Source: Pseudomonadota bacterium
GTDB taxonomy: Bacteria > Pseudomonadota > Gammaproteobacteria > Eutrophobiales > Eutrophobiaceae
Direction: 5' to 3'
Assembly (NCBI GenBank): GCA_013112535.1
Contig: JABFGI010000001.1
Location: forward strand, 306,414-370,413
DNA length: 64,000 nucleotides
Below the pieces are notes generated by a model, which saw nothing but the letters and a program-made list of their open reading frames with translations, was not told the origin of the DNA and searched no databases. Below, in pieces: positions 4,425 to 52,520 of the stretch; position 1 is the stretch's first letter, and each line of letters begins with the position of its first letter. Position numbers and translations under genes: made by a program.

Positions 4425-6445
<2,021 letters not shown>

Positions 6446-6565
6446 GAGTTAAGCATGAAATAGGAGAAACTTACCTGAAGAACCACAATAATTTGTGATA
6501 TTTATGAGGATAGTTTCAAATTCATCTTGAATTGTACGAAAAATATCGTACAATTAGGGGCGTAA

Positions 6566-6862
6566 ATGGGATTTACAGATGCTAAACGACAAGTTATCAA
6601 TTGTCTAAATAAAGGACAATACTCTCATGAAGCGAGAGGTAATATTGATATCAAGAACTTGTTGGCAACAGGGGATGTTACGCCAGAAGACGTGGCAACA
6701 ATTCTTGGGCGCTCCAGAGGGAATGAGTATTCCTGTAGTCCTCATGATTACGATAGCAGTGTTGATGTGCATATCGTAAAGACAACACATCAAGGCATTA
6801 ACTGGTATATAAAGTGGTATTTTATTGAGCCTGATGTGGTTTTTATTAGCGTTCATCCTTGA
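6566..6862 (+). CDS. MqsR-family type II toxin-like protein (98 aa)
   Basis: Same length as E. coli MqsR. Colinear similarity: LNKGQ, ILGRSRGNEY vs IIGLSESDFY, YIKWYFIEPDVVFISVH vs YLKITVIHDVLIVSFKE. Overlaps the downstream gene by 4 nt. Confidence 0.7.
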   Translation: MGFTDAKRQVINCLNKGQYSHEARGNIDIKNLLATGDVTPEDVATILGRSRGNEYSCSPHDYDSSVDVHIVKTTHQGINWYIKWYFIEPDVVFISVHP

Positions 6863-7464
6863 GGTTAATTATGAAAATTCTAAAAGTCGGTGACACACAA
6901 AAAGCAGGGTGTTACCAATGCAAGAAAATTCAACCAGTGACCTTTCAGTTAAGAGATGTACCTTTTAGTGATGGTAGTGACATTGTAAAAGATGTATTGG
7001 TCGGAGTGTGTGATAAATGTGATTCTGTTGTATTACTACCGAGTCAATCTACTCCCTCAGTTAAAAAGCAGTTGGAAAAACAACGTAAACCACTTGAAAG
7101 CCGCTTGCCAGCACACATGATTGATATTCTTAATATGGCAAGTTTTACGATAGGCGCATCGACTGACTTTAATTCAAATTTAATAAAATATTATATACAT
7201 GCTTTATCAACAGAGCAGATTTCGCCAAAAGGTGTTGCCAGGTATTTAAATGCAGAGTTATTCAAAGGTAAATCACAAAAGCGACTTTCAATCAAAGGAC
7301 GTATGGTTGCAGATGAACTGAGTCGATTAAAAGAAATAACGCATATCGAAAGCACGTCTGATTTATTAAAAGGTATTATACTAAAAATCAATGATGATAT
7401 TTTAATTCACAAAAATAAAAAAAGAATTGAGCAACTAAAAACAATTATTTCTGCGACGGTATAA
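6859..7464 (+). CDS. MqsA-like antitoxin: N-terminal CxxC...CxxC zinc ribbon fused to an uncharacterised ~130-aa C-terminal domain
   Basis: N-terminus CYQCKK...TFQLRD...CDKCDS parallels the MqsA CPVCHQ...TFRGRK...CVHCEES. C-terminus is not a recognisable HTH-XRE domain. Confidence 0.55.
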   Translation: MRLIMKILKVGDTQKAGCYQCKKIQPVTFQLRDVPFSDGSDIVKDVLVGVCDKCDSVVLLPSQSTPSVKKQLEKQRKPLESRLPAHMIDILNMASFTIGASTDFNSNLIKYYIHALSTEQISPKGVARYLNAELFKGKSQKRLSIKGRMVADELSRLKEITHIESTSDLLKGIILKINDDILIHKNKKRIEQLKTIISATV

Positions 7465-7477
7465 AAATTTGTAAGAG

Positions 7478-7598
7478 GTCAGAGATTATGCAGATGAACA
7501 AGGTTTGGAAAATATGGATGAAGCGATTGAGAAAGGCATGGATGACATGTCAAAAGAGTTTAAAGAAAAGGGTAGTGAGATTTATAACAAACTTTAAA
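7478..7598 (+). repeat. Direct repeat copy 2: degenerate duplicate of the last 38 codons of thiC plus its stop
   Basis: Encodes [38 protein letters not shown], differing from the ThiC tail mostly by synonymous changes. No start codon or 5' part. Confidence 0.8.
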
Positions 7599-40886: not shown

Positions 40887-41168
40887 TTAATTTGCTTGTT
40901 TAGGCACTTTACCTTTTATCATATAAGCAAAAGCAATCGTTTCAGCCACTGCCACATAAAGTTCTCTGGGTATTTCCTGATCTAATTTCAGTTTGGCAAG
41001 CATATCAACTAATTCAGGCTCTTCTCGTATAGGAATATTATGTTCTTTTGCGATCGCAATAATTTCATCTGCAATTTCGCCCATACCTTTTGCAGATAAT
41101 ACTGGTGCCGTGACGCCGTCATAACTCAGTGCAACAGCTTTGTTTGGTGTTTCAATGAAGTCAGTCAT
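40887..41168 (-). CDS. Stand-alone FlhB/EscU C-terminal domain protein (YlqH-like)
   Basis: KAVALSYDG...APVLSAKGMGEIADEIIAIAKEHNIPI...LYVAVAETIAFAY is colinear with the FlhB C-terminal cleaved domain. Confidence 0.8.
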   Translation of the reverse strand: MTDFIETPNKAVALSYDGVTAPVLSAKGMGEIADEIIAIAKEHNIPIREEPELVDMLAKLKLDQEIPRELYVAVAETIAFAYMIKGKVPKQAN

Positions 41169-42472
41169 ATCGTAATATTAATAAGGTTGTTGCTTGTGTG
41201 AGGAATGTCTTGTTCTGAAAGTGTTTCTTGCACACAAACAATTTTCCCGGTCGATAAACCACATTTTTCTATTTGATTGTTCAATAGTGATAAATTTGAA
41301 TTTATTAAGTCATTTAATATTTCGTTTTCTGACCATAATGTCGCGTTTACTTCTTTATCAATAACAGATAGCTTCGCAGAAATCGTTCCTATGTTCTCGA
41401 ACGTAATTTTCAGATCAGTTGCCCAGCGTAATTGTTGTTCATCATCTGATTTTGAATCTCTGTCAGCATGAATATTAAGTTTTAACAGATCAATATCCTG
41501 TTTATCTTTCACCGGCATTTCAATAGACCATAGAGGAGCCTGATTATCGTGCGTGACGATAGCTTTTGATTGATTGACTTCTATACGTGCAATGGATGAT
41601 TCTATGTGTTTACTAAGCATTTCAGTTTCTGCTTTTAAAGCTTGTTCAACCAGTTTATTCGAGTTTTGTACTTTTGCTGCATTACTTCTGGTACTTTCCG
41701 GAGATGTTAATTGAACTTGTTTAATAAAACCGTTCTCCTGATTTTTTATATTTTGTTTATACTTGTTGATGACATCTGACAGTTGTAACAAGTTAGTCTT
41801 CAGGTCTTTTGCGATTTCCAGATTTTGAGTCAATTGATGTGCTTGTGCGGTACTTTGCCCGGATGTTGACGATGACGCTTTTTGTGCTGGTAAGTTAGTT
41901 AGTTTTAAAAGCGAATCAGGTTTAGTCTTCACTTCTGTTAGTAATTTTGCTTCCAGAAAAATACCTGAATTCTTGATTGCAGTTTTTAAACCAGATTCAT
42001 TATTCAGGTTGTTTTTTACCGGCAATTGTTCAATTAATTTTTTAAACTGTTGCTCTATCGGTGCGGGAATAGTTTTAATGACATCTTTAACATTTTTTGA
42101 AACCTGAGCTAAAACAGAGGTTAGTTTTTCCATTCCTGCCTGTTTAGGCATGCTTTCCCGGAGTAGCTGTTGTTTAGCTTCATGAATTACCTTGGTTTGA
42201 TTTTGTTGTAATACCCGTAAAGTTACAGGATTGTCCTGTTTTTCTACGACCAGCTTTAGTTGGTCTCCGATATTAAGTGGCCTGCTTTGATCGGTTTTAG
42301 CTTCAATTTGTTGATTGCCAATTTGCAAAATAAATGAATCTGGCGAGTGTTTTTTTATTACAGTCGCATTTACTATTTGGCCGATAAACATTTGGGATAG
42401 GTTTAACTGTACCAATTTCACTGATGGCAGTGTTGGAGATGAAGTAGAAATAACTAACGGTTGAATATCCAT
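41165..42472 (-). CDS. FliK-like protein with C-terminal Flg_hook domain
   Basis: C-terminal ~80 aa (ISAKLSVIDKEVNATLWSEN...CGLSTGKIVCV) fits the hook-length-control C-terminal domain pattern; Gln/Asn-rich middle region. Overlaps the FlhB-like gene by 4 nt. Confidence 0.6.
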   Translation of the reverse strand: MDIQPLVISTSSPTLPSVKLVQLNLSQMFIGQIVNATVIKKHSPDSFILQIGNQQIEAKTDQSRPLNIGDQLKLVVEKQDNPVTLRVLQQNQTKVIHEAKQQLLRESMPKQAGMEKLTSVLAQVSKNVKDVIKTIPAPIEQQFKKLIEQLPVKNNLNNESGLKTAIKNSGIFLEAKLLTEVKTKPDSLLKLTNLPAQKASSSTSGQSTAQAHQLTQNLEIAKDLKTNLLQLSDVINKYKQNIKNQENGFIKQVQLTSPESTRSNAAKVQNSNKLVEQALKAETEMLSKHIESSIARIEVNQSKAIVTHDNQAPLWSIEMPVKDKQDIDLLKLNIHADRDSKSDDEQQLRWATDLKITFENIGTISAKLSVIDKEVNATLWSENEILNDLINSNLSLLNNQIEKCGLSTGKIVCVQETLSEQDIPHTSNNLINITI

Positions 42473-42543: not shown

Positions 42544-43422
42544 TTGGCTGAGCGAAGACTATGGTTTGTAAAGAGAAATGGCGAAATTAAGGGGCCATTT
42601 TTGTCGGCACAAATCACGAGAAATATTTTGCTTGGTCGACTTCGTTATGATGATGAAATAAGTCCTGATGAGCATAATTGGCAAAAAATCGATAAGCATC
42701 GGGAGCTTTACCCTGATGTTTTACAGGAAACTCCCGTCGATGAAGAAAAACTGGAAATTGCTAAAATGCAGGTTGACGAACGTGTTTCAGAAAAAAGACG
42801 CCAAAAAAACAAAATGGCGCAGGAAAGACGCAAAACAAGGGAACGACGCGGAACCGAATCTGAAATTATGTTGGTTCACAGGGAAAATAGAAATTCATTA
42901 AAAGAATTAGATAAAAAACATCTCAAGCGACCAAAGTTACCGGTGACTTCTATTGCTTTATTGATCATTGTGATGATGGTATTTGGTTTTGTTTTGAAAC
43001 CACAGGAAGAAAACGGATTAATTGATTGTTCCTTGCCAGCGGGTAAAGGGGTGAACTGGCATCATTGTCATTTTATAAATTTAAACATTGAAAATCAGAA
43101 TCTTGAATCAGCGATTTTAACTGAAGCTACTTTGAATGGAGCAAATTTAATGGGCGTTAATCTTTCCGGTGCAGATATGGCGTATGCGGTCATTAAATCA
43201 AGTGATTTGAGTTATGCCAATCTCGAGCGTGTACGTTTAATTGGTGCAAATTTAACGCAAACGGATATTCGTTATGCGAATTTGAAAAATGCTGATCTAT
43301 CTTATGCTGATTTAACTGGCGCACAACTTGCTGGAGCTGATTTGAGTAATGCTCAATTTAATAATACGATTTGGACGGATGGTAGACAATGTAAAAAAGG
43401 ATCTGTTGGTTCCTGTCGATAA
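42544..43422 (+). CDS. Membrane-anchored pentapeptide-repeat protein with N-terminal DUF4339/GYF-like domain
   Basis: N-terminal WFVKRNGEIKGPF motif, single TM, C-terminal A(N/D)LxxANLxGADL pentapeptide repeats. Confidence 0.7.
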   Translation: MAERRLWFVKRNGEIKGPFLSAQITRNILLGRLRYDDEISPDEHNWQKIDKHRELYPDVLQETPVDEEKLEIAKMQVDERVSEKRRQKNKMAQERRKTRERRGTESEIMLVHRENRNSLKELDKKHLKRPKLPVTSIALLIIVMMVFGFVLKPQEENGLIDCSLPAGKGVNWHHCHFINLNIENQNLESAILTEATLNGANLMGVNLSGADMAYAVIKSSDLSYANLERVRLIGANLTQTDIRYANLKNADLSYADLTGAQLAGADLSNAQFNNTIWTDGRQCKKGSVGSCR

Positions 43423-44787
43423 TTAATTATAATATTCAGCAGTATAACGCCAGGCTTTTTCTGGCGAATCGGATGCAGCTATTCCAGCTTTTCTTTTTAA
43501 TTCATTTAAAAACTGTCCAGACTCCTTTAAGGATTCCCACACAACTGGTAAAAATGTAGCTCGGGCATTGTTTTTGGAAATAATTAAACCATCGACACCG
43601 GGACGTAATTTAGCCAACAAGTCTTGTTCGTCAGCAAAAGGTAGTGGTGATGCCGGCGTTAATATCGATAAACTGATTTCAACGTGTTTATATTCTTCTT
43701 CAGTTAATGGTTTAAAACGCGGATCAGAAAATGCAGCAGCATGAGCATAGTGCGCAACGGCATCAATTAAAGGCGCATGTGCCTCCGTTGTGCCTATGCA
43801 ACCACGTAATTGACCATTCAGTTTTAACGTAATAAATACAGCATAATTTTTCTTGAGATGTTCCGAAACGTCTTTTGTTTCAGGCTCAAATGCTTTTCCT
43901 GTTTTAAATCCCTGTTCAATACTTTTATGAATGATATTAAAGATCAATGCTTCATCTTCTTTATTAAGAATTCTGTTTTCAAATAAAGCATAAGCACCAT
44001 AACCGACAACACGGTCTTTTGTACCTGCTGTGTCACCTGAATTACGTAAATCCACCGTCTTGATAGACATGTTTTTTTCTTGAGCCAGTTTTAATAAACC
44101 GCGCATGGGCATACAACCACAAGCCTGTTTGGAACCAATATTTTTATAATCGAATTTTTCAATAAGATGTGTTGTGTCGTTATCTGTTTTGCATGCTGTT
44201 TCATAATCCAGGTAGTGACTAAGATCAGAACTTATAACAATTAAGGTTTCATCTCCGCCCCACAGTTCTTCAAGAATCGTTGCAACCTGCTCAGGTGTGG
44301 CATCACCAACTAATACTGGTAGAAGAACAAAATTGTTTAATACTTTCTGTAAAAAAGGAATGTGTACTTCTAAACTATGTTCCTGTTCGTGAGCTTCATC
44401 TAAAAATTGAACGAAAGGATGCGTGCTAATATTTTTAAGGCTATCTGTATCAACCGGTACATTACCGAGAGGTGAAGCAAAATGGGTATTACCGGGTAAT
44501 GCCAATCCTCTTACATAAACTCTATGTGTCGGGCCTAATAACACGACACGAGTAATTTTCGTTTTTAACTTTACAAGATTTGAGTAAACACTGGCCGCTA
44601 TCTGGCCTGAATAAATATAGCCGGCATGAGGTGCAATAATCGCTTTTGGTGCTGCAATTTCGACAGTTGCTATAGAAAGGTATTCCTCTAGCATGCTATT
44701 CAACTGGCTGGTGTTTTTGGGATAAAAGCTACCCGCAACTGCTGTTGGTCTAATAGAAAGAGGTTGATTCATTGACGTTACACCCAT
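43423..44787 (-). CDS. Fusion of AmmeMemoRadiSam system protein B (Memo-like) and protein A (AMMECR1 domain)
   Basis: N-terminal about 270 aa Memo/MEMO1-like (GSFYP...APHAGY). C-terminal about 180 aa AMMECR1 (RGCIGT motif). Confidence 0.8.
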   Translation of the reverse strand: MGVTSMNQPLSIRPTAVAGSFYPKNTSQLNSMLEEYLSIATVEIAAPKAIIAPHAGYIYSGQIAASVYSNLVKLKTKITRVVLLGPTHRVYVRGLALPGNTHFASPLGNVPVDTDSLKNISTHPFVQFLDEAHEQEHSLEVHIPFLQKVLNNFVLLPVLVGDATPEQVATILEELWGGDETLIVISSDLSHYLDYETACKTDNDTTHLIEKFDYKNIGSKQACGCMPMRGLLKLAQEKNMSIKTVDLRNSGDTAGTKDRVVGYGAYALFENRILNKEDEALIFNIIHKSIEQGFKTGKAFEPETKDVSEHLKKNYAVFITLKLNGQLRGCIGTTEAHAPLIDAVAHYAHAAAFSDPRFKPLTEEEYKHVEISLSILTPASPLPFADEQDLLAKLRPGVDGLIISKNNARATFLPVVWESLKESGQFLNELKRKAGIAASDSPEKAWRYTAEYYN

Positions 44788-44850
44788 ATATACTAGATTA
44801 GTAAACCATATTAAATTATAGGACTAAACTTATCTTATAGTCATTCATTC

Positions 44851-45954
44851 TTGGATATCATGAATAGCAACACGGTTAAAACAAAATATTGGCATAAACT
44901 CGATGATGGTCGTGTTCAGTGTGACCTTTGTCCCCGGGCATGCAAATTGAAAGACGGGCAAACAGGGCTTTGTTTTGTTCGCGCTTGTCTGGATGAACAA
45001 ATTGTTTTAACGACTTATGGACGTTCCAGTGGATTTTGTATTGATCCGATTGAGAAAAAACCACTCAATCATTTTTACCCTGGAACATCGGTTCTTTCTT
45101 TTGGTACCGCAGGATGTAATCTGGCCTGTAAATTTTGTCAAAATTGGGATATCAGTAAATCACGAGAAATGGACACACTTGCTGATGTTGCCAGTCCTGA
45201 AACATTGGCACAAGCGGCAAAAAAAACAGGCTGTCGCAGTATTGCATTTACCTATAATGATCCGGTGATTTTTCATGAATATGCTATTGATGTTGCTCAG
45301 GCTTGTCATGAGAAAGAAATAAAAACTGTTGCTGTTTCAGCAGGTTATGTGTCACCAGAGCCTAGAGCAGAGTTTTATAAGTACATTGATGCAGTTAATA
45401 TTGACTTGAAAGCCTTTAGCGAGGATTTTTATCACAAAATCACTGGAAGTCATCTCGCTCCCGTTCTGGAAACGTTGTCTTATCTTAAACATGAAACCAA
45501 TGTTTGGTTTGAAATAACTAACTTGTTAATTCCTGGTGAAAATGATTCGGACAAAGAGATAAATGAAATGACAAAATGGATTATTTCAGAGTTGGGTCCC
45601 GATGTACCACTGCACTTTTCCGCCTTTCATCCCGATTGGAAAATGCGAAATATTCCAAGAACAAGTTTGAAAAGTTTACAAAAAGCGAGATCTATTGCCA
45701 TCATGAACGGCTTACATTATGTCTACACTGGGAATGTCCACGATCCGGAAGGGGATACGACCTATTGTTATGAATGTGGAGAGGAACTTATCGTTCGTGA
45801 TTGGTATGAGATTAAAAACTGGAATTTAGGAGCAAATGGAAATTGTCCTAAATGTAATACAGTGTGTGCCGGTGAGTTTGAGCCAAACCACGGAAACTGG
45901 GGCTCAAAAAGGGTTCCAGTGAGGCTAGACGGTTTTTTGGCTAATGCTAATTAA
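44851..45954 (+). CDS. AmmeMemoRadiSam system radical SAM enzyme
   Basis: CNLACKFCQNW radical-SAM cluster motif and N-terminal Cys-rich segment; divergent from the Memo-AMMECR1 gene. Confidence 0.8.
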   Translation: MDIMNSNTVKTKYWHKLDDGRVQCDLCPRACKLKDGQTGLCFVRACLDEQIVLTTYGRSSGFCIDPIEKKPLNHFYPGTSVLSFGTAGCNLACKFCQNWDISKSREMDTLADVASPETLAQAAKKTGCRSIAFTYNDPVIFHEYAIDVAQACHEKEIKTVAVSAGYVSPEPRAEFYKYIDAVNIDLKAFSEDFYHKITGSHLAPVLETLSYLKHETNVWFEITNLLIPGENDSDKEINEMTKWIISELGPDVPLHFSAFHPDWKMRNIPRTSLKSLQKARSIAIMNGLHYVYTGNVHDPEGDTTYCYECGEELIVRDWYEIKNWNLGANGNCPKCNTVCAGEFEPNHGNWGSKRVPVRLDGFLANAN

Positions 45955-45973: not shown

Positions 45974-46002
45974 TTGAAAATCATCATTTAGCACTGTACT
46001 AT
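45974..46002 (+). promoter_or_regulatory. Sigma-70 promoter for the metY-rimP-nusA-infB operon
   Basis: TTGAAA, 17 nt, TACTAT, followed by a GC-rich discriminator GCGCCACC just upstream of the tRNA. Confidence 0.5.
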
Positions 46003-46015
46003 GCGCCACCTCTGA

Positions 46016-46092
46016 TGCGGGGTGGAGCAGTCTGGCAGCTCGTCGGGCTCATAACCCGAAGGTCGCAGGTTCAAATCCTGCCCCCGCTACCA
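46016..46092 (+). tRNA. metY: Initiator tRNA-fMet (anticodon CAU)
   Basis: Near-identical to E. coli tRNA-fMet: three G:C pairs in the anticodon stem, non-Watson-Crick 1:72, A73, CCA encoded. Upstream of rimP-nusA as in E. coli. Confidence 0.9.
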
Positions 46093-46283
46093 ATTTCTAA
46101 TACAAAATTGGTTATATATATCAGAATGATTAAGACCCCTGTATTGGGGTTTTTTGCTATATGGGTAATTGGTCTATCAATAAGGCAGTTTGTAGCATGC
46201 CCTATTTAAACTGGCTATAATTACCAATTGAATTTTATGTATTAAATTAAGTGGGCCTTGAGCCCCTTTTTTGTTTCAGGCTT

Positions 46284-46739
46284 ATGGTTAGACAAAATCA
46301 GGTTCTATTCGATTTATTTGAGAGTGAAGTGACCACATTAGGTTATGAATTGCTTGGTATTGAATTAAATCAGAGTACACATGGTTCAATCTTACGGGTC
46401 TATATCGACAAAGAAGGTGGAATCGTTGTTGAGGACTGTGTTGCGGTGAGTCGACAACTTTCAGGTGTACTTGATGTTGAAGATCCCATTAAGGGACATT
46501 ATGACCTTGAGGTATCTTCACCGGGTTTGGATAGACCGCTGTTTACAGTAGAGCAGTATAAAAAGTTTATCGGTGAAACCATCAAACTAAGATTGTTTGA
46601 AAAAGTTGAGAATAGAAAACGTTTTTCAGGTGTTTTAAAAGCAGTTGATGACGACGAAATCGTGATTGATTGTGATAATGAGGAATATAACGTGCCTTTT
46701 AGATTGATTGAACGTGCCCGTTTGGTTCCACAGTTTTGA
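46284..46739 (+). CDS. rimP: Ribosome maturation factor RimP
   Basis: VLDVEDPI...LEVSSPGLDRPLF conserved core; start trimmed to the internal ATG. Confidence 0.85.
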   Translation: MVRQNQVLFDLFESEVTTLGYELLGIELNQSTHGSILRVYIDKEGGIVVEDCVAVSRQLSGVLDVEDPIKGHYDLEVSSPGLDRPLFTVEQYKKFIGETIKLRLFEKVENRKRFSGVLKAVDDDEIVIDCDNEEYNVPFRLIERARLVPQF

Positions 46740-46761
46740 TTCATATTAATGAGTAGAGTAA

Positions 46762-48285
46762 ATGAATAAAGAAATATTAATGGTTGTTGATGTTGTTTCT
46801 AATGAAAAAGGTGTTGCTAAGGACATTATTTTTGAAGCAATCGAAGCTGCGCTTGCCAGTGCAACCAAAAAACGAAATCGTGAAGACATAGAAGCACGGG
46901 TTGCCATTGATCGTGAAACCGGTGATTACGATACTTTCCGTTGTTGGGAAGTGGTTGATGATGAACCCGAATCACTTGAAGCATCAACAAGACAAGTTTC
47001 CCTGTCAGATGCTAAAGAGAAGAACCCTGATATAGAAATTGGCCAATACATTGAAGAGCCTATGGATTCTGTTGAATTTGGCCGAATTGCGGCACAAGCA
47101 GCCAAGCAGGTTATTGTACAGAAAGTACGTGAAGCAGAGCGTGCACAAGTGCTGGATGCTTATGAAGATCGCGTTGGTGAGATGGTCAGCGGTGTCGTAA
47201 AGCGCTCAGAACGCAGTGGCATTATTCTCGATTTAGGTAGTAATGCTGAAGCGTTTATTCCGAGAGAAGAGTTGATCCCTCGTGAAGCGATTCGTCCGGG
47301 TGATCGCATTCGAGCATATCTAAAAGAAATAAAACCGGAAGTGACACGTGGACCACAATTGTATCTTAGCCGTACTGCACCGGAACTGTTAATCGATTTA
47401 TTTAAAATCGAAGTGCCGGAAATCAATGAGGGCATGATTGATATAATTAATGGTGCCAGAGACCCGGGAGCCAGAGCTAAAATTGCCGTTAAAGCAAATG
47501 ATCCAAGAATCGATCCTATCGGTGCTTGCGTAGGCATGCGAGGTTCCAGAGTTCAAGCTGTATCCAATGAATTGGGTGGAGAACGTGTTGACATTATTCT
47601 TTGGGATGAAAACCCGGCTCAGTTTGTTATTAATGCAATGGCTCCTGCAGAAGTGGCCTCGATTATGGTTGATGAAGATGAACATACAATGGATGTTGCT
47701 GTGGCTGAAGAAAACCTGTCCCAGGCAATTGGTCGTGGTGGTCAAAATGTAAAACTTGCCAGTGAATTAACCGGTTGGGTGCTCAATGTCATGTCGGTTG
47801 AGCAAGCTGATGAGAAAAACGAAGCAGAAGCAGAAACACTTCAAGCCATGTTTATGGAAGAGCTTGATGTTGATGAAGAAATGGCCCTTATTCTAGTACA
47901 GGAAGGGTTTTCAAGTGTTGAAGAAGTGGCATATGTACCAGAAAAGGAAATGCTGGCTATTGAAGAGTTTGATGATGAATTAGTTAGTGAATTACGCGGT
48001 CGTGCCAATGATGTGATGTTGACACGTGCGATTGCGAAAGAAGAAAAGCTAGGTGATGCTAAACCAGCTGAGGACTTGTTAACAATGGAAGGTATGACTG
48101 AAGAGTTAGCCTATGAATTGGCAGGTAAAGGCGCTGTAACCATGGATGATTTAGCAGAATTGTCAGTTGATGAATTGATGGATGTGTCATCCATGCTTGA
48201 TAAAGAGAGTGCAGGGAAATTAATTATGACTGCACGTATTCCCTGGTTTGAATCCGAAGAATCAAGTGAAGAGGAAGTTAATTAA
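46762..48285 (+). CDS. nusA: Transcription termination/antitermination factor NusA
   Basis: N-terminus MNKEIL..VSNEKG, S1 and KH domains, acidic C-terminal AR repeats. Confidence 0.95.
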
Positions 48286-50789
48286 TGCCTGAAGTTACCG
48301 TCAGTGAATTTGCCGCCGATGTCGGAGTGCCTGTTGAGCGCATTCAAGAACAGTTGGTTGAGGCAGGGCTTTCTAAAAAGAAAGCCGATGAGGTTATTTC
48401 CGATTCTGAAAAATCGGAGTTATTAGCTTTTTTAAGAAAGAAACACGGTAAAGATGAAGGCGCAAAAAAAATAACATTACGACGAAAAATAACGAGTGAA
48501 CTCAAGGTTAATGTTGCAAGTCAGGGTCGAGCTAAACCTCAATCAAAGACAGTTAATGTAGAGTTTCGTAAAAAACGTACATATGCAAAGCGTGGCGATC
48601 TTGCTGAAACAGCAAAACAGGAACAAGAAGCAGCTGCCGCGAAGTTAGCTGAAGAAGAAGCAGCTGCTGCAAAGAAATTAGCTGATGAAGAAGCAGCAAA
48701 GCAAGCAGAAGAAAATGCTGCAGCTGAAGCAAAGGCAAAAGCTGAAGCTGAGGCTGAGGCTGCCGCCAAGAAGGAAGCAGTAGAGGCAGCAGCTGCAGTT
48801 GTGGAAACGCCTGTTGAACCAGTAGTTGAAATTAAACCTGAACCGCCTGTTGTCGAACAAGCAGATTCAAAGAAATCATCAAAAGATAAAAAAGAACGTA
48901 CACGTCATGGCCGTGAAGAGTTGCATGTTGCCAGTAAAGGTTCAGGTAGAAGACGCAATAAAAAAACCAAGCGACAAACAGTTGTACAACAATCAGGAAG
49001 TCAACAACATGGTTTTGAAAAACCGACAGCACCAGTCGTAAAAGATATCGATATCCCCGAAAGTATTTCTGTCGCTGATTTAGCGCAACGTATGTCGGTT
49101 AAAAGTTCTGAGGTCATTAAAGTAATGATGGGCCTGGGTACGATGGCAACTATCAATCAAATTATCGATCAAGATACGGCTGCTATTGTAGTTGAGGAAA
49201 TGGGGCATAATCCCAAATTGAAAAAAGAGAATGCGCTTGAGGAAGAAATGATTCAGGCAACTCAGCAAGATGGTGAGCAAGTAACTCGCGCACCTGTTGT
49301 GACTATTATGGGGCACGTTGATCATGGTAAAACTTCATTACTGGATTATATTCGTCGTAGTAAAGTTGCGGCTGGTGAAGCCGGTGGTATTACACAACAT
49401 ATTGGTGCCTATCGAGTAAGTACTGATAATGGTGAAATTACTTTTCTTGATACTCCCGGCCATGAAGCATTTACTGCAATGCGTGCCCGTGGAGCAAAAG
49501 TAACCGATATCGTTATTATTGTTGTTGCTGCTGATGATGGTGTCATGCCGCAGACTGAAGAAGCGGTTAAACATGCCAAGGCATCAGAAGTGCCTATCAT
49601 TATTGCGGTAAATAAAATTGATAAAGAGAATGCTGATCCTGAACGTGTTAAACAGGAATTATCTAAATTCGAAGTTATCCCTGAAGACTGGGGTGGTGAT
49701 ACGCAGTTTATCAATGTTTCAGCGCATACGGGTGAAGGTGTTGATGCTTTATTAGAAAGTATTTTATTACAATCGGAAATTCTTGAGTTGAAAGCCGTTG
49801 CTACAGGCGCTGCTTCAGGAGCGGTTATTGAAGCTCGGTTAGATAAAGGTCGTGGTCCTGTTGCCAGTATTCTTGTTCAAAATGGAACGCTTAATAAAGG
49901 TGATGTTGTTTTAAGTGGTCATGAATTTGGTCGTGTACGAGCAATGATTGATGATCTGGGTAATGAAGTTGCCACTGCTGGACCTTCAACACCAGTCGAG
50001 ATTCTTGGTTTATCTGGAACACCTAATGCAGGTGATGAAATGATAGTTGTTCCTGATGAAAAGAAAGCCAGAGAAATTGCCTTGTTTAGACAAGGTAAAT
50101 ATCGCGAAACAAAAATGGCACAACAACAAGCTTCCAAGCTTGAAAATATTATGAACCAAATGGCTGAAGGTGAGATTGCGGCCTTGAATTTATTAGTTAA
50201 GGCTGATGTGCATGGTTCATCAGAAGCATTAGTTGATGCGTTATCTCGCTTAAGTACTGATGAAGTCAGAGTGAGTATTGTAAGTAGTGGTGTCGGTGGA
50301 ATAACCGAGACAGATATAAATTTAGCGATTACTTCAAAAGCGGTTGTTATCGGTTTTAATGTCCGTGCTGATGCCAGTGCGCGTAAATTAATTGATGCAG
50401 AAGGTGTCGACCTGCGTTATTACAGCATTATTTATGATGTTATCGATGATGTTAAAGCTGCGCTTAGTGGCATGTTGTCGCCAGATATACGTGAACAGAT
50501 TACCGGTGTTGCTGAAGTCAAAGAAGTTTTCCGTTCTCCAAAATTTGGAGATATAGCAGGTTGTATGGTGACTTCAGGTCGCGTTAATCGAAATAATCCT
50601 ATTCGTGTATTACGCGATAATGTTGTTATTTATGAAGGTGAGTTGGAATCTTTACGTCGTTTTAAAGATGATGTGAATGAAGTTAAGTCAGGTACTGACT
50701 GTGGTATCGGCGTGAAGAATTATAACGATGTACAACCGGGTGATCAGATTGAAGTGTTTGAACGCGTCAGTGTCGAACGAACAATCTAG
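48285..50789 (+). CDS. infB: Translation initiation factor IF-2
   Basis: G-domain motifs ([17 protein letters not shown]), Ala/Glu/Lys-rich N-terminal low-complexity region. Confidence 0.95.
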
Positions 50790-52176: not shown

Positions 52177-52205
52177 TTGTTACGCTGGAAACGCGCGGGT
52201 ACAAT
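52177..52205 (+). promoter_or_regulatory. Sigma-70 promoter for rpsO
   Basis: TTGTTA, 17 nt, TACAAT, about 45 nt upstream of the rpsO ATG. Confidence 0.5.
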
Positions 52206-52250
52206 ACGCGCAAATTTGATATAGCATAAGAGTTGCAGGAGTATTTGAAT

Positions 52251-52520
52251 ATGGCATTAAGTTGTGAACAGAAAGCGGGAATCGTAAAAGATTATCAGCG
52301 CGGTGCAAATGATACGGGATCTCCCGAAGTCCAGGTTGCATTGCTGACGTCTCGCATTACTGATTTATCAGGTCATTTCAAAGAGCATGCTAAAGACCAC
52401 CATTCAAGACAGGGTCTGTTACGCATGGTAAACCAAAGACGTAAGTTACTTGATTACCTGAAAGGTAAAGATCTTAATCGCTATCGCGATTTGATCGGTC
52501 GTCTCGGTTTACGTAAATAA
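52251..52520 (+). CDS. rpsO: 30S ribosomal protein S15
   Basis: [11 protein letters not shown]...[20 protein letters not shown] is near-identical to S15; start trimmed to the MALS ATG. Confidence 0.95.

Follow-up and report, generated by a model that had tools for sequence, protein, structure and literature searches.

A fused Memo-AMMECR1 gene next to a divergent radical SAM gene: a known AmmeMemoRadiSam variant in an uncultured gammaproteobacterium

The window (the whole 64,000-nucleotide stretch of DNA that was analysed) carries on its minus strand, at 43423..44787, a gene for a 454-aa protein in which a Memo module (AmmeMemoRadiSam protein B) is followed by an AMMECR1 module (protein A). 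The gene for the radical SAM enzyme of the same system lies next to it on the plus strand, at 44851..45954. The Memo module spans residues 13-267 (43987..44751, minus strand); it matches TIGR04336 (AmmeMemoSam_B; cut-off 26) with 260.2 bits over model positions 1-269 of 270, and Pfam Memo (PF01875) with 183 bits over residues 15-265. The AMMECR1 module spans residues 282-450 (43438..43944, minus strand), where TIGR04335 (AmmeMemoSam_A; cut-off 99) scores 180.0 bits over model positions 3-172 of 175, Pfam AMMECR1 (PF01871) is found with 148 bits over residues 286-451, and Foldseek returns PH0010 (1vaj) with a target TM of 0.79. A fusion of both modules within 454 aa, as read by the initial annotation, was thus confirmed by HMM, both models scoring above their cut-offs. 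The start of the protein (MGVTSMNQ) is backed by homologs starting MGVTPMNQ or MGATPMNQ. Between the modules lies a junction of residues 268-281 (43945..43986, minus strand), delimited from the secondary structure of the AF2 model: the last Memo strand stops near residue 269, the first AMMECR1 helix begins at residue 276, and pLDDT is about 82 for residues 271-280. The equivalent segment has a modal length of 21 residues in fused representatives. The model of the whole protein has a mean pLDDT of 90.5 and a pTM of only 0.73.

The radical SAM protein matches Pfam Radical_SAM (PF04055) and the full length of TIGR04337 (AmmeMemoSam_rS, model positions 1-349; cut-off 220) with 653.4 bits, which places it, as the initial annotation had it, in the AmmeMemoRadiSam subfamily. 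All three modules exceed curated NCBIfam cut-offs with E-values of 1e-53 to 1e-197, so that chance matches are ruled out. Translation from TTG 44851 gives 367 aa; the start is more likely ATG 44860, giving 364 aa, because the closest homologs are 364 aa long and start MNSNTVKTKYWH. The divergent intergenic region (44788..44859, unstranded) therefore measures 63 bp up to the TTG and 72 bp up to the more likely ATG: the divergent arrangement noted initially holds, and the distance of 63 bp given with it applies to the TTG start. Promoter-like hexamers occur in this gap on both strands (ATGACT-18-TATAAT on the minus strand, 10/12; TTGACG-16-TAGATT on the plus strand, 9/12), but the seven hexamer sites in the gap do not exceed the number in shuffled sequences (9.6 +/- 3.2), and as candidate promoters they are only suggestive.

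The predicted catalytic motifs are intact in all three modules, judged by their positions and by their conservation across homologs. In the Memo half, the putative metal-site residues H54, H88, D188, H191 and C223 are conserved in 149-151 of 151 fused cluster representatives and line up with the MEMO1 motifs PHAGY, GPSH, SSDFCH and (I)CG; this His, His, Asp, His, Cys set corresponds to the metal-site residues of MEMO1. The best Foldseek matches of this half are copper- and iron-bound MEMO1 (7l5c and 7kq8, target TM 0.79). In the AMMECR1 half, the RGCIGT motif reported initially was found at residues 328-333, and DPRF at residues 355-358. The RGCIG core (R328-G332; 43792..43806, minus strand) contains the predicted catalytic Cys330, and its G, C and G are each conserved in 150 of 151 fused representatives, its R in 142 of 151. 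Balaji and Aravind 2007 (PMC2034487) predicted the AMMECR1 active site to lie at the motifs RGChG and DxRa, and both motifs of this predicted cleft, the second a DxR followed by an aromatic residue, are present and near-invariant here. The radical SAM enzyme has the CX3CX2C motif (C89, C93 and C96, in CNLACKFC at residues 89-96; 45115..45138, plus strand) expected to bind the [4Fe-4S] cluster that in turn binds SAM, and this motif sits in a core of the partial TIM-barrel type. Further invariant cysteines form an N-terminal set (C24/C27/C31/C41) and a C-terminal ribbon (C306/C309/C332/C335); these sets are invariant across 60 homologs and in sequences down to 34% identity.

Homologs of the radical SAM enzyme bear the JGI product name 'pyruvate formate lyase activating enzyme'. 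Read literally, this name would make the enzyme a true pyruvate formate-lyase activase, and the membership of the Memo fold in the LigB/PCAD dioxygenase superfamily (Foldseek ranks 12-17) would likewise make the Memo half a ring-cleaving extradiol dioxygenase that breaks down aromatic compounds. We consider this reading extremely improbable. The core of the enzyme does resemble that of the pyruvate formate-lyase activase, and TIGR02493 (PFLA) is the next best model, but its 67 bits (cut-off 232) are far from the 653 bits (cut-off 220) obtained with TIGR04337; all the glycyl-radical-enzyme activase models stay at 36-67 bits against cut-offs of 174-500. As for the Memo half, aminophenol and MhpB dioxygenases reach target TM values of 0.45-0.50 at 10-12% identity, against 0.79 at 27% for MEMO1, and the third ligand position is a cysteine, as in MEMO1.

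The fused gene is by no means isolated. All of the best 120 database homologs are fused and carry both Pfam domains. Of the top 150 cluster representatives at 50% identity, 144 are fused. Among 80 metagenome loci anchored on the radical SAM gene, 29 have both B and A, and 11 of these 29 (38%) are fused, a fraction that holds for the clade sampled (the 80 best radical SAM matches, 60-73% identity). Of six GTDB loci classed by HMM search of stop-to-stop ORFs, three are fused (L001-L003) and three split (L004, L006 and L008), and the fused form occurs in both Gammaproteobacteria and Alphaproteobacteria. In every split pair B precedes A, and the stop codon of the first gene overlaps or abuts the start codon of the second. 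Fused and split states are intermixed on NJ trees, with at least eight to nine state changes. On this phylogenetic evidence, translationally coupled B-then-A pairs have given rise to the fused architecture, or replaced it, more than once, and fusion is a frequent state of the AmmeMemoRadiSam family, not a departure from it. The frequency survey called for by the initial annotation, run in both homologs and radical SAM-anchored loci, thus found fusion to be common, and does not support the rarity or novelty implied there. That the fusion might be an assembly or sequencing artefact, in which a stop codon was lost or the reading frame shifted between two genes, deserves mention since the source is a MAG and since in L004 the two genes are parted by a single in-frame TGA (TGA, 6 nt and ATG, all in frame), so that one error could mimic a fusion. 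The probability of such an artefact is nevertheless practically negligible: more than 260 fused homologs, independent of one another and spread over many assemblies, share the same junction at 50-86% identity, some of the fused genes sit on megabase contigs, and the junction is ordered in the AF2 model.

The B-A and radical SAM genes point away from each other across a gap of 63-72 bp, and the same layout recurs in L001-L003, L017, L018, L034, L063 and L091. This linkage is not obligate. Neither B nor A is present in eight radical SAM loci that extend 3 kb or more to each side, 12 loci have a Memo gene and no adjacent AMMECR1 gene, and one alphaproteobacterial fused B-A gene has no radical SAM gene within 4 kb. 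Clustering of all ORFs in 89 loci revealed no third conserved partner and no recurring glycyl radical enzyme gene; the recurring clusters were limited to antisense shadow ORFs and to generic families (PAS-kinase, GGDEF-EAL and acyl-CoA-ligase). The neighbours in the window encode PBP1b, a TPR protein, FliK-like, FlhB-C-like and pentapeptide proteins, and the metY-nusA-infB operon. Adjacency to tRNA-Met (metY)/rimP/nusA/infB is kept only in close relatives (L002 and L091) and is absent in L003, L004 and L090; owing to this restriction we rejected it as a functional hint, it lends weak support to an RNA-related role, and it is most simply explained as shared synteny. A role in anti-phage defence was also rejected after a negative scan with PADLOC defence models, in which B-A had no match and the radical SAM enzyme only a weak generic core match to pVip (about 22 bits).

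Joint action of B and A, as initially argued from the fusion, is a reasonable inference, strengthened by the recurrent fusion and fission and by the translationally coupled junctions of the split pairs. The survey sharpens the picture to one in which B and A would form one obligate physical unit, with the radical SAM enzyme as a looser partner. Memo(dioxygenase)-AMMECR1 gene fusions were already reported, with the same functional inference, by Balaji and Aravind 2007 (PMC2034487), who also proposed a modification of nucleotides or RNA bases. Our literature search for a published function of the system returned nothing beyond such predictions of the Aravind group. In line with these, we tentatively propose a scheme which, taken with all its parts, we hold to be possible but rather improbable. 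The radical SAM enzyme, with its PFL-activase-like core and its two extra Cys4 motifs, would cleave SAM reductively and abstract a hydrogen from the substrate; the AMMECR1 cysteine would then carry the intermediate covalently or serve as a nucleophile; and a redox step or ring chemistry would take place at the metal centre of Memo. In this scheme B and A would act as one physical unit in a multi-step, radical-initiated modification by a B-A/radical SAM complex, the modified substrate being most plausibly a nucleotide or RNA base.

Other readings of the system have to be weighed against this scheme. An isoprenoid/lipid context for the Memo clade was reportedly proposed by Burroughs et al. in 2019, and the substrate could accordingly be an aliphatic isoprenoid or lipid instead of a nucleic-acid base. 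The support for this idea, which we regard as unlikely, is that one comparative-genomic proposal, as cited in PMC7159879; the window holds nothing that contradicts it, but the 89 loci show no recurring isoprenoid or lipid genes around the system, and the window neighbours listed above also count against it. The radical SAM enzyme could also be a protein-directed activase acting on B-A itself, for instance by placing a radical or a post-translational modification on the RGCIG loop or close to it; B-A would then be the true catalyst. The enzyme most resembles glycyl-radical-enzyme activases, but this resemblance is weak evidence since a PFL-AE-like core is also the minimal radical SAM fold. The many radical SAM genes of the clade that lack an adjacent B or A, and the fused B-A gene without an adjacent radical SAM gene, also speak against such an activase, which we consider quite unlikely. 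To our knowledge, moreover, eukaryotic Memo and AMMECR1 work without a radical SAM enzyme. A more specific form of the same idea, in which modification of the RGCIG cleft makes Memo-AMMECR1 a radical- or modification-dependent enzyme and in which eukaryotic MEMO1 and AMMECR1 have lost or replaced the activation, seems very unlikely; if true, Memo-AMMECR1 would be a previously unrecognised enzyme needing a radical or a modification. Finally, the Memo half might serve mainly in copper or iron binding and redox homeostasis, as suggested for human MEMO1, the linkage to AMMECR1 and the radical SAM enzyme then reflecting cofactor or metal handling and not a pathway that modifies a substrate. The conservation of the five MEMO1 metal-site positions and the copper- and iron-bound MEMO1 structures at the top of the structural matches are consistent with such a role. 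We nonetheless judge it highly improbable, as it leaves unexplained the invariant AMMECR1 cysteine cleft, the dedicated radical SAM enzyme with its curated co-occurrence, and the repeated B-A fusion.

AmmeMemoRadiSam poses a genuine puzzle: the three-module system is widespread, and Memo and AMMECR1 have human homologs with disease links. The present locus adds no new leverage on it. Fused B-A genes are abundant, they have already been used as evidence of functional linkage, and many occur in genomes with better-characterised contigs, so that the compact handle for biochemistry seen in this locus by the initial annotation amounts to nothing beyond what hundreds of other genomes offer. What the survey adds is modest, namely that about four in ten linked B-A pairs are fused in one radical SAM clade, that there were at least eight fusion or fission events, that split pairs always run from B to A with coupled junctions, and that many radical SAM or Memo genes are unlinked from AMMECR1. 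Module identity, architecture and status as a known, common variant taken jointly, the locus is very probably a standard two-gene version of AmmeMemoRadiSam, carried by an uncultured gammaproteobacterium. The instance is an ordinary one because the fused form is common, recurrent, publicly annotated and reported since 2007.

The fused Memo-AMMECR1 form is indeed already known and not new. An identical protein exists in NCBI as MBL1140720.1, "AmmeMemoRadiSam system protein B", along with the record NOG59181.1. This product name cites protein B alone, and the fusion is hidden in the annotation; JGI/IMG names fused homologs "protein B/protein A". In comparison with the system defined by TIGR04335, TIGR04336 and TIGR04337, the genes are adjacent and all models are matched, but B and A form one polypeptide here, not two. 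The Memo fold matches that of human MEMO1 (3bcz, 7kq8 and 7l5c) with conserved metal-site motifs, and the AMMECR1 fold matches those of human AMMECR1 and the archaeal PH0010, ST0229 (1wsc) and MM0484 (1zq7), with RGCxG and DxRF conserved. These solved MEMO1 and AMMECR1 proteins are separate single-domain chains with only 26-30% identity to the window protein, and structure comparison by Foldseek found no solved chain spanning both modules. The radical SAM enzyme differs from PflA (245 aa, 3c8f) by an additional CX2CX3CX9C motif near its N-terminus and a CX2C...CX2C ribbon in its C-terminal part, both of which PflA lacks. We know of no such dedicated radical SAM enzyme in eukaryotes, which keep Memo and AMMECR1 without it. 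There is no substantive difference from the known fused B/A proteins of JGI/IMG, NCBI and ENA: these too run from B to A, measure about 450-465 aa and are joined by an equally short junction, and close relatives also have the divergent radical SAM neighbour.

The Memo-like and AMMECR1 modules of the AmmeMemoRadiSam system are joined here in a single 454-aa protein (B-A), encoded at 43423-44787 on the minus strand. Both NCBIfam models are matched end to end, TIGR04336 (AmmeMemoSam_B) at residues 13-267 with 260 bits against a cut-off of 26 and TIGR04335 (AmmeMemoSam_A) at residues 282-450 with 180 bits against 99, which bears out the fusion described in the initial annotation; Pfam places Memo at 15-265 and AMMECR1 at 286-451. 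The 454-aa start is backed by homologs with the N-terminus MGVTPMNQ. The neighbouring 367-aa ORF (44851-45954, plus strand) carries the Pfam Radical_SAM domain and matches the whole of TIGR04337 (AmmeMemoSam_rS; 653 bits against a cut-off of 220), and the proposed check with the system's HMMs thus leaves B, A and the radical SAM enzyme (rSAM) all above their cut-offs. The rSAM gene is indeed divergent, but its distance from B-A, put at 63 bp, is probably about 72 bp, since the nearest homologs are of 364 aa with the N-terminus MNSNTVKTKYWH, making the ATG at 44860 the likely start. An assignment of rSAM to the glycyl-radical activases was rejected, all such models falling far under their cut-offs (67 against 232 bits for PFLA). 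Given this score, the JGI name "pyruvate formate lyase activating enzyme" borne by the homologous proteins of its family (P0297-P0410) is a propagated over-annotation.

The RGCIGT motif attributed to the AMMECR1 half was located at residues 328-333, as RGCIG(T), and is followed by DPRF at 355-358. On the fused-family profile, H54, H88, D188/H191 and C223 of the Memo half align with the MEMO1 motifs PHAGY, GPSH, SSDFCH and ICG. These five residues, like RGCxG and DxRF of the AMMECR1 module, are nearly invariant in 150 diverse representatives of the fused family, and the Memo half is predicted to carry a MEMO1-type metal site. In rSAM the SAM-cluster motif is intact (CX3CX2C, residues 89-96) and is accompanied by two extra Cys4 sites. 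B-A was modelled with confidence by AlphaFold2 from 75 fused homologs (mean pLDDT 90.5, pTM 0.73). In the model the junction is short: the last Memo strand stops at about residue 269, and AMMECR1 begins its first helix at 276.

The survey of how often the fusion occurs, suggested in the initial annotation, indicates that it is not unusual. All of the best 120 matches in a collection of 5.8 billion proteins have both Pfam domains, with lengths of about 450-465 aa and identities to B-A down to 51%. Among the best 150 cluster representatives of a 1.84-billion-protein library (50% identity; last match listed still at E ~1e-81), 144 are fused, the other six being fragments or one stand-alone Memo. 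Fused proteins are present in several gammaproteobacterial lineages and in Alphaproteobacteria, where one cluster of Candidatus Scatocola has 336 members and is spread over 1000 contigs or more. So as not to select on fusion, loci were also sampled via the rSAM gene (80 metagenome loci, rSAM identity 60-73%) and classified with HMMs of each module against stop-to-stop ORFs, loci too short for a call being left out of the fused and split counts. Both modules were present at 29 loci, 11 fused and 18 split. Among the GTDB loci, the module HMMs found only L001-L003 fused and L004, L006 and L008 split. At L007 (Acidimicrobiales MAG, 4783-7513), the rSAM gene and the AMMECR1 gene are both split over two overlapping frames, with Memo in a different frame from AMMECR1; this is probably a frameshift error of long-read assembly, so the fusion state of that locus is not callable.

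In every split pair B precedes A, and the start of A overlaps or abuts the stop of B (-20 to +19 nt, mostly -4 to -14). At L004 (Thioalkalispiraceae MAG) the two genes share a frame and only TGA, AAT AAT and then ATG stand between them (6802-6813), a split state one point mutation away from fusion. When neighbour-joining trees are drawn for the Memo module and for rSAM, fused and split loci fall among one another, and Fitch parsimony requires at least 8 and 9 changes of state, on trees without bootstrap and with "split" calls that metagenome frameshifts could inflate. Since the split pairs are coupled and the states interleave, a single step suffices to fuse such a translationally coupled pair, and this step has been taken or undone many times. 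The whole pattern strongly supports the view, advanced from the fusion itself, that B and A act as one unit.

The linkage of rSAM to this unit is looser. Fused B-A occurs in three layouts, divergent from, upstream of or downstream of rSAM. Twelve of the rSAM-anchored loci have Memo without an adjacent AMMECR1 (L032, L044, L048, L052, L053, L056, L065, L070, L076, L081, L088, L089), and eight, where 3 kb or more of sequence flanks rSAM on each side, have neither partner within 3-5 kb (L010, L014, L016, L019, L020, L066, L082, L084); the rSAMs lacking both partners are 60-70% identical to that of the window. At single loci the "three-gene system" is thus often scattered or incomplete. Conversely, the very abundant fused B-A of gut Candidatus Scatocola (L092 and L093, 4001-5578; 525 aa, of which about 50 form an N-terminal extension; indexed in 2129 blocks) lacks any radical SAM gene within 4 kb and is followed, with a small overlap, by a 570-aa ORF without a Pfam match. 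This rSAM is also not known from eukaryotes that keep Memo and AMMECR1. Together with the loose linkage, this suggests a conserved core made up of B-A, with rSAM as an accessory or replaceable step.

The surroundings of the two genes are best read as inherited synteny, because the whole arrangement recurs at L002 (B-A 73% identical) and L091 (58%), and partly at L004, and is absent from L003 and L090. On one side, a convergent pentapeptide-repeat gene (42544-43422, plus strand; basic, charged N-terminal half, predicted membrane segment) has its stop codon directly against that of B-A, the two ORFs being 0 bp apart; it holds the same position at L002 (59% identity) and L004 (30%) and is absent in L091. 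Beyond it lie genes for a 435-aa protein with a FliK hook-length-control domain (41165-42472, minus strand) and a 93-aa protein reduced to the FlhB/YscU C-terminal domain (40887-41168, minus strand; PF01312, model positions 262-334), which overlap by 4 nt, and then TPR and PBP1b genes. The immediate neighbourhood, from about 38 to 51 kb, showed no further gene for flagella or type III secretion, and the FliK/FlhB pair also accompanies the system at L002, L004 and L091. On the other side, tRNA-Met (CAT; 46016-46092, plus strand), 62 bp past the stop codon of rSAM and just behind a promoter-like TTGAAA-17-TACTAT (45974-46002), precedes rimP, nusA and infB (46251-50789) in the classic metY-nusA-infB operon layout. 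Promoter-like hexamers occur on both strands of the divergent gap in numbers not above shuffled expectation. Clustering of all ORFs from 89 loci revealed no further recurrent partner gene, and no defence-system signature was found at B-A/rSAM. Elsewhere in the window, a TPP riboswitch (4426-4515, plus strand; 69 bits) lies directly upstream of a 644-aa ORF (4509-6443), overlapping its start, and a ribosomal protein S15 leader (52186-52307, plus strand; 41.6 bits) scores just above gathering.

A Memo metal-site module and an AMMECR1 cysteine cleft are linked, covalently or by translational coupling. In the scheme we propose, rSAM would start the reaction by abstracting hydrogen, an intermediate would be carried or attacked by the AMMECR1 cysteine, and a redox or ring step would fall to the Memo metal centre, with one substrate common to the whole sequence. 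We found no report of a biochemical function for the system in the literature searched. Published contextual arguments make a nucleotide or RNA base the most likely substrate in our rating, itself a tentative one. An isoprenoid or lipid, reportedly proposed by Burroughs et al. 2019, seems unlikely. The PFL-activase-like core of rSAM prompts the reading that it is a protein-directed activase working on B-A itself, which we consider improbable. That Memo serves in metal or redox homeostasis is in our view less probable still.

The inference of joint action was already made by Balaji and Aravind in 2007 (PMC2034487), and later work uses the term "Memo-Ammecr1 systems" (PMC7159879). JGI homologs are named [quoted passage not shown], and NCBI holds both the exact 454-aa sequence (MBL1140720.1) and a 449-aa call (NOG59181.1), from a Pseudomonadota MAG, as "AmmeMemoRadiSam system protein B". 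The fusion in the window is thus an ordinary form of a known system, one that has been both annotated and published before. The system as a whole is an attractive research problem, but as the compact handle for biochemistry that was suggested, this locus makes it no easier to test than many others do. The structure search found no solved chain spanning both halves. Taken separately, the N-terminal half of the model superposes on Cu- and Fe-bound human MEMO1 (7l5c, 7kq8; target TM 0.79) and the C-terminal half on the archaeal AMMECR1 homolog PH0010 (1vaj; target TM 0.79), whereas the ring-cleaving dioxygenases, members of the same superfamily as Memo, match B-A far more poorly (TM 0.45-0.50).
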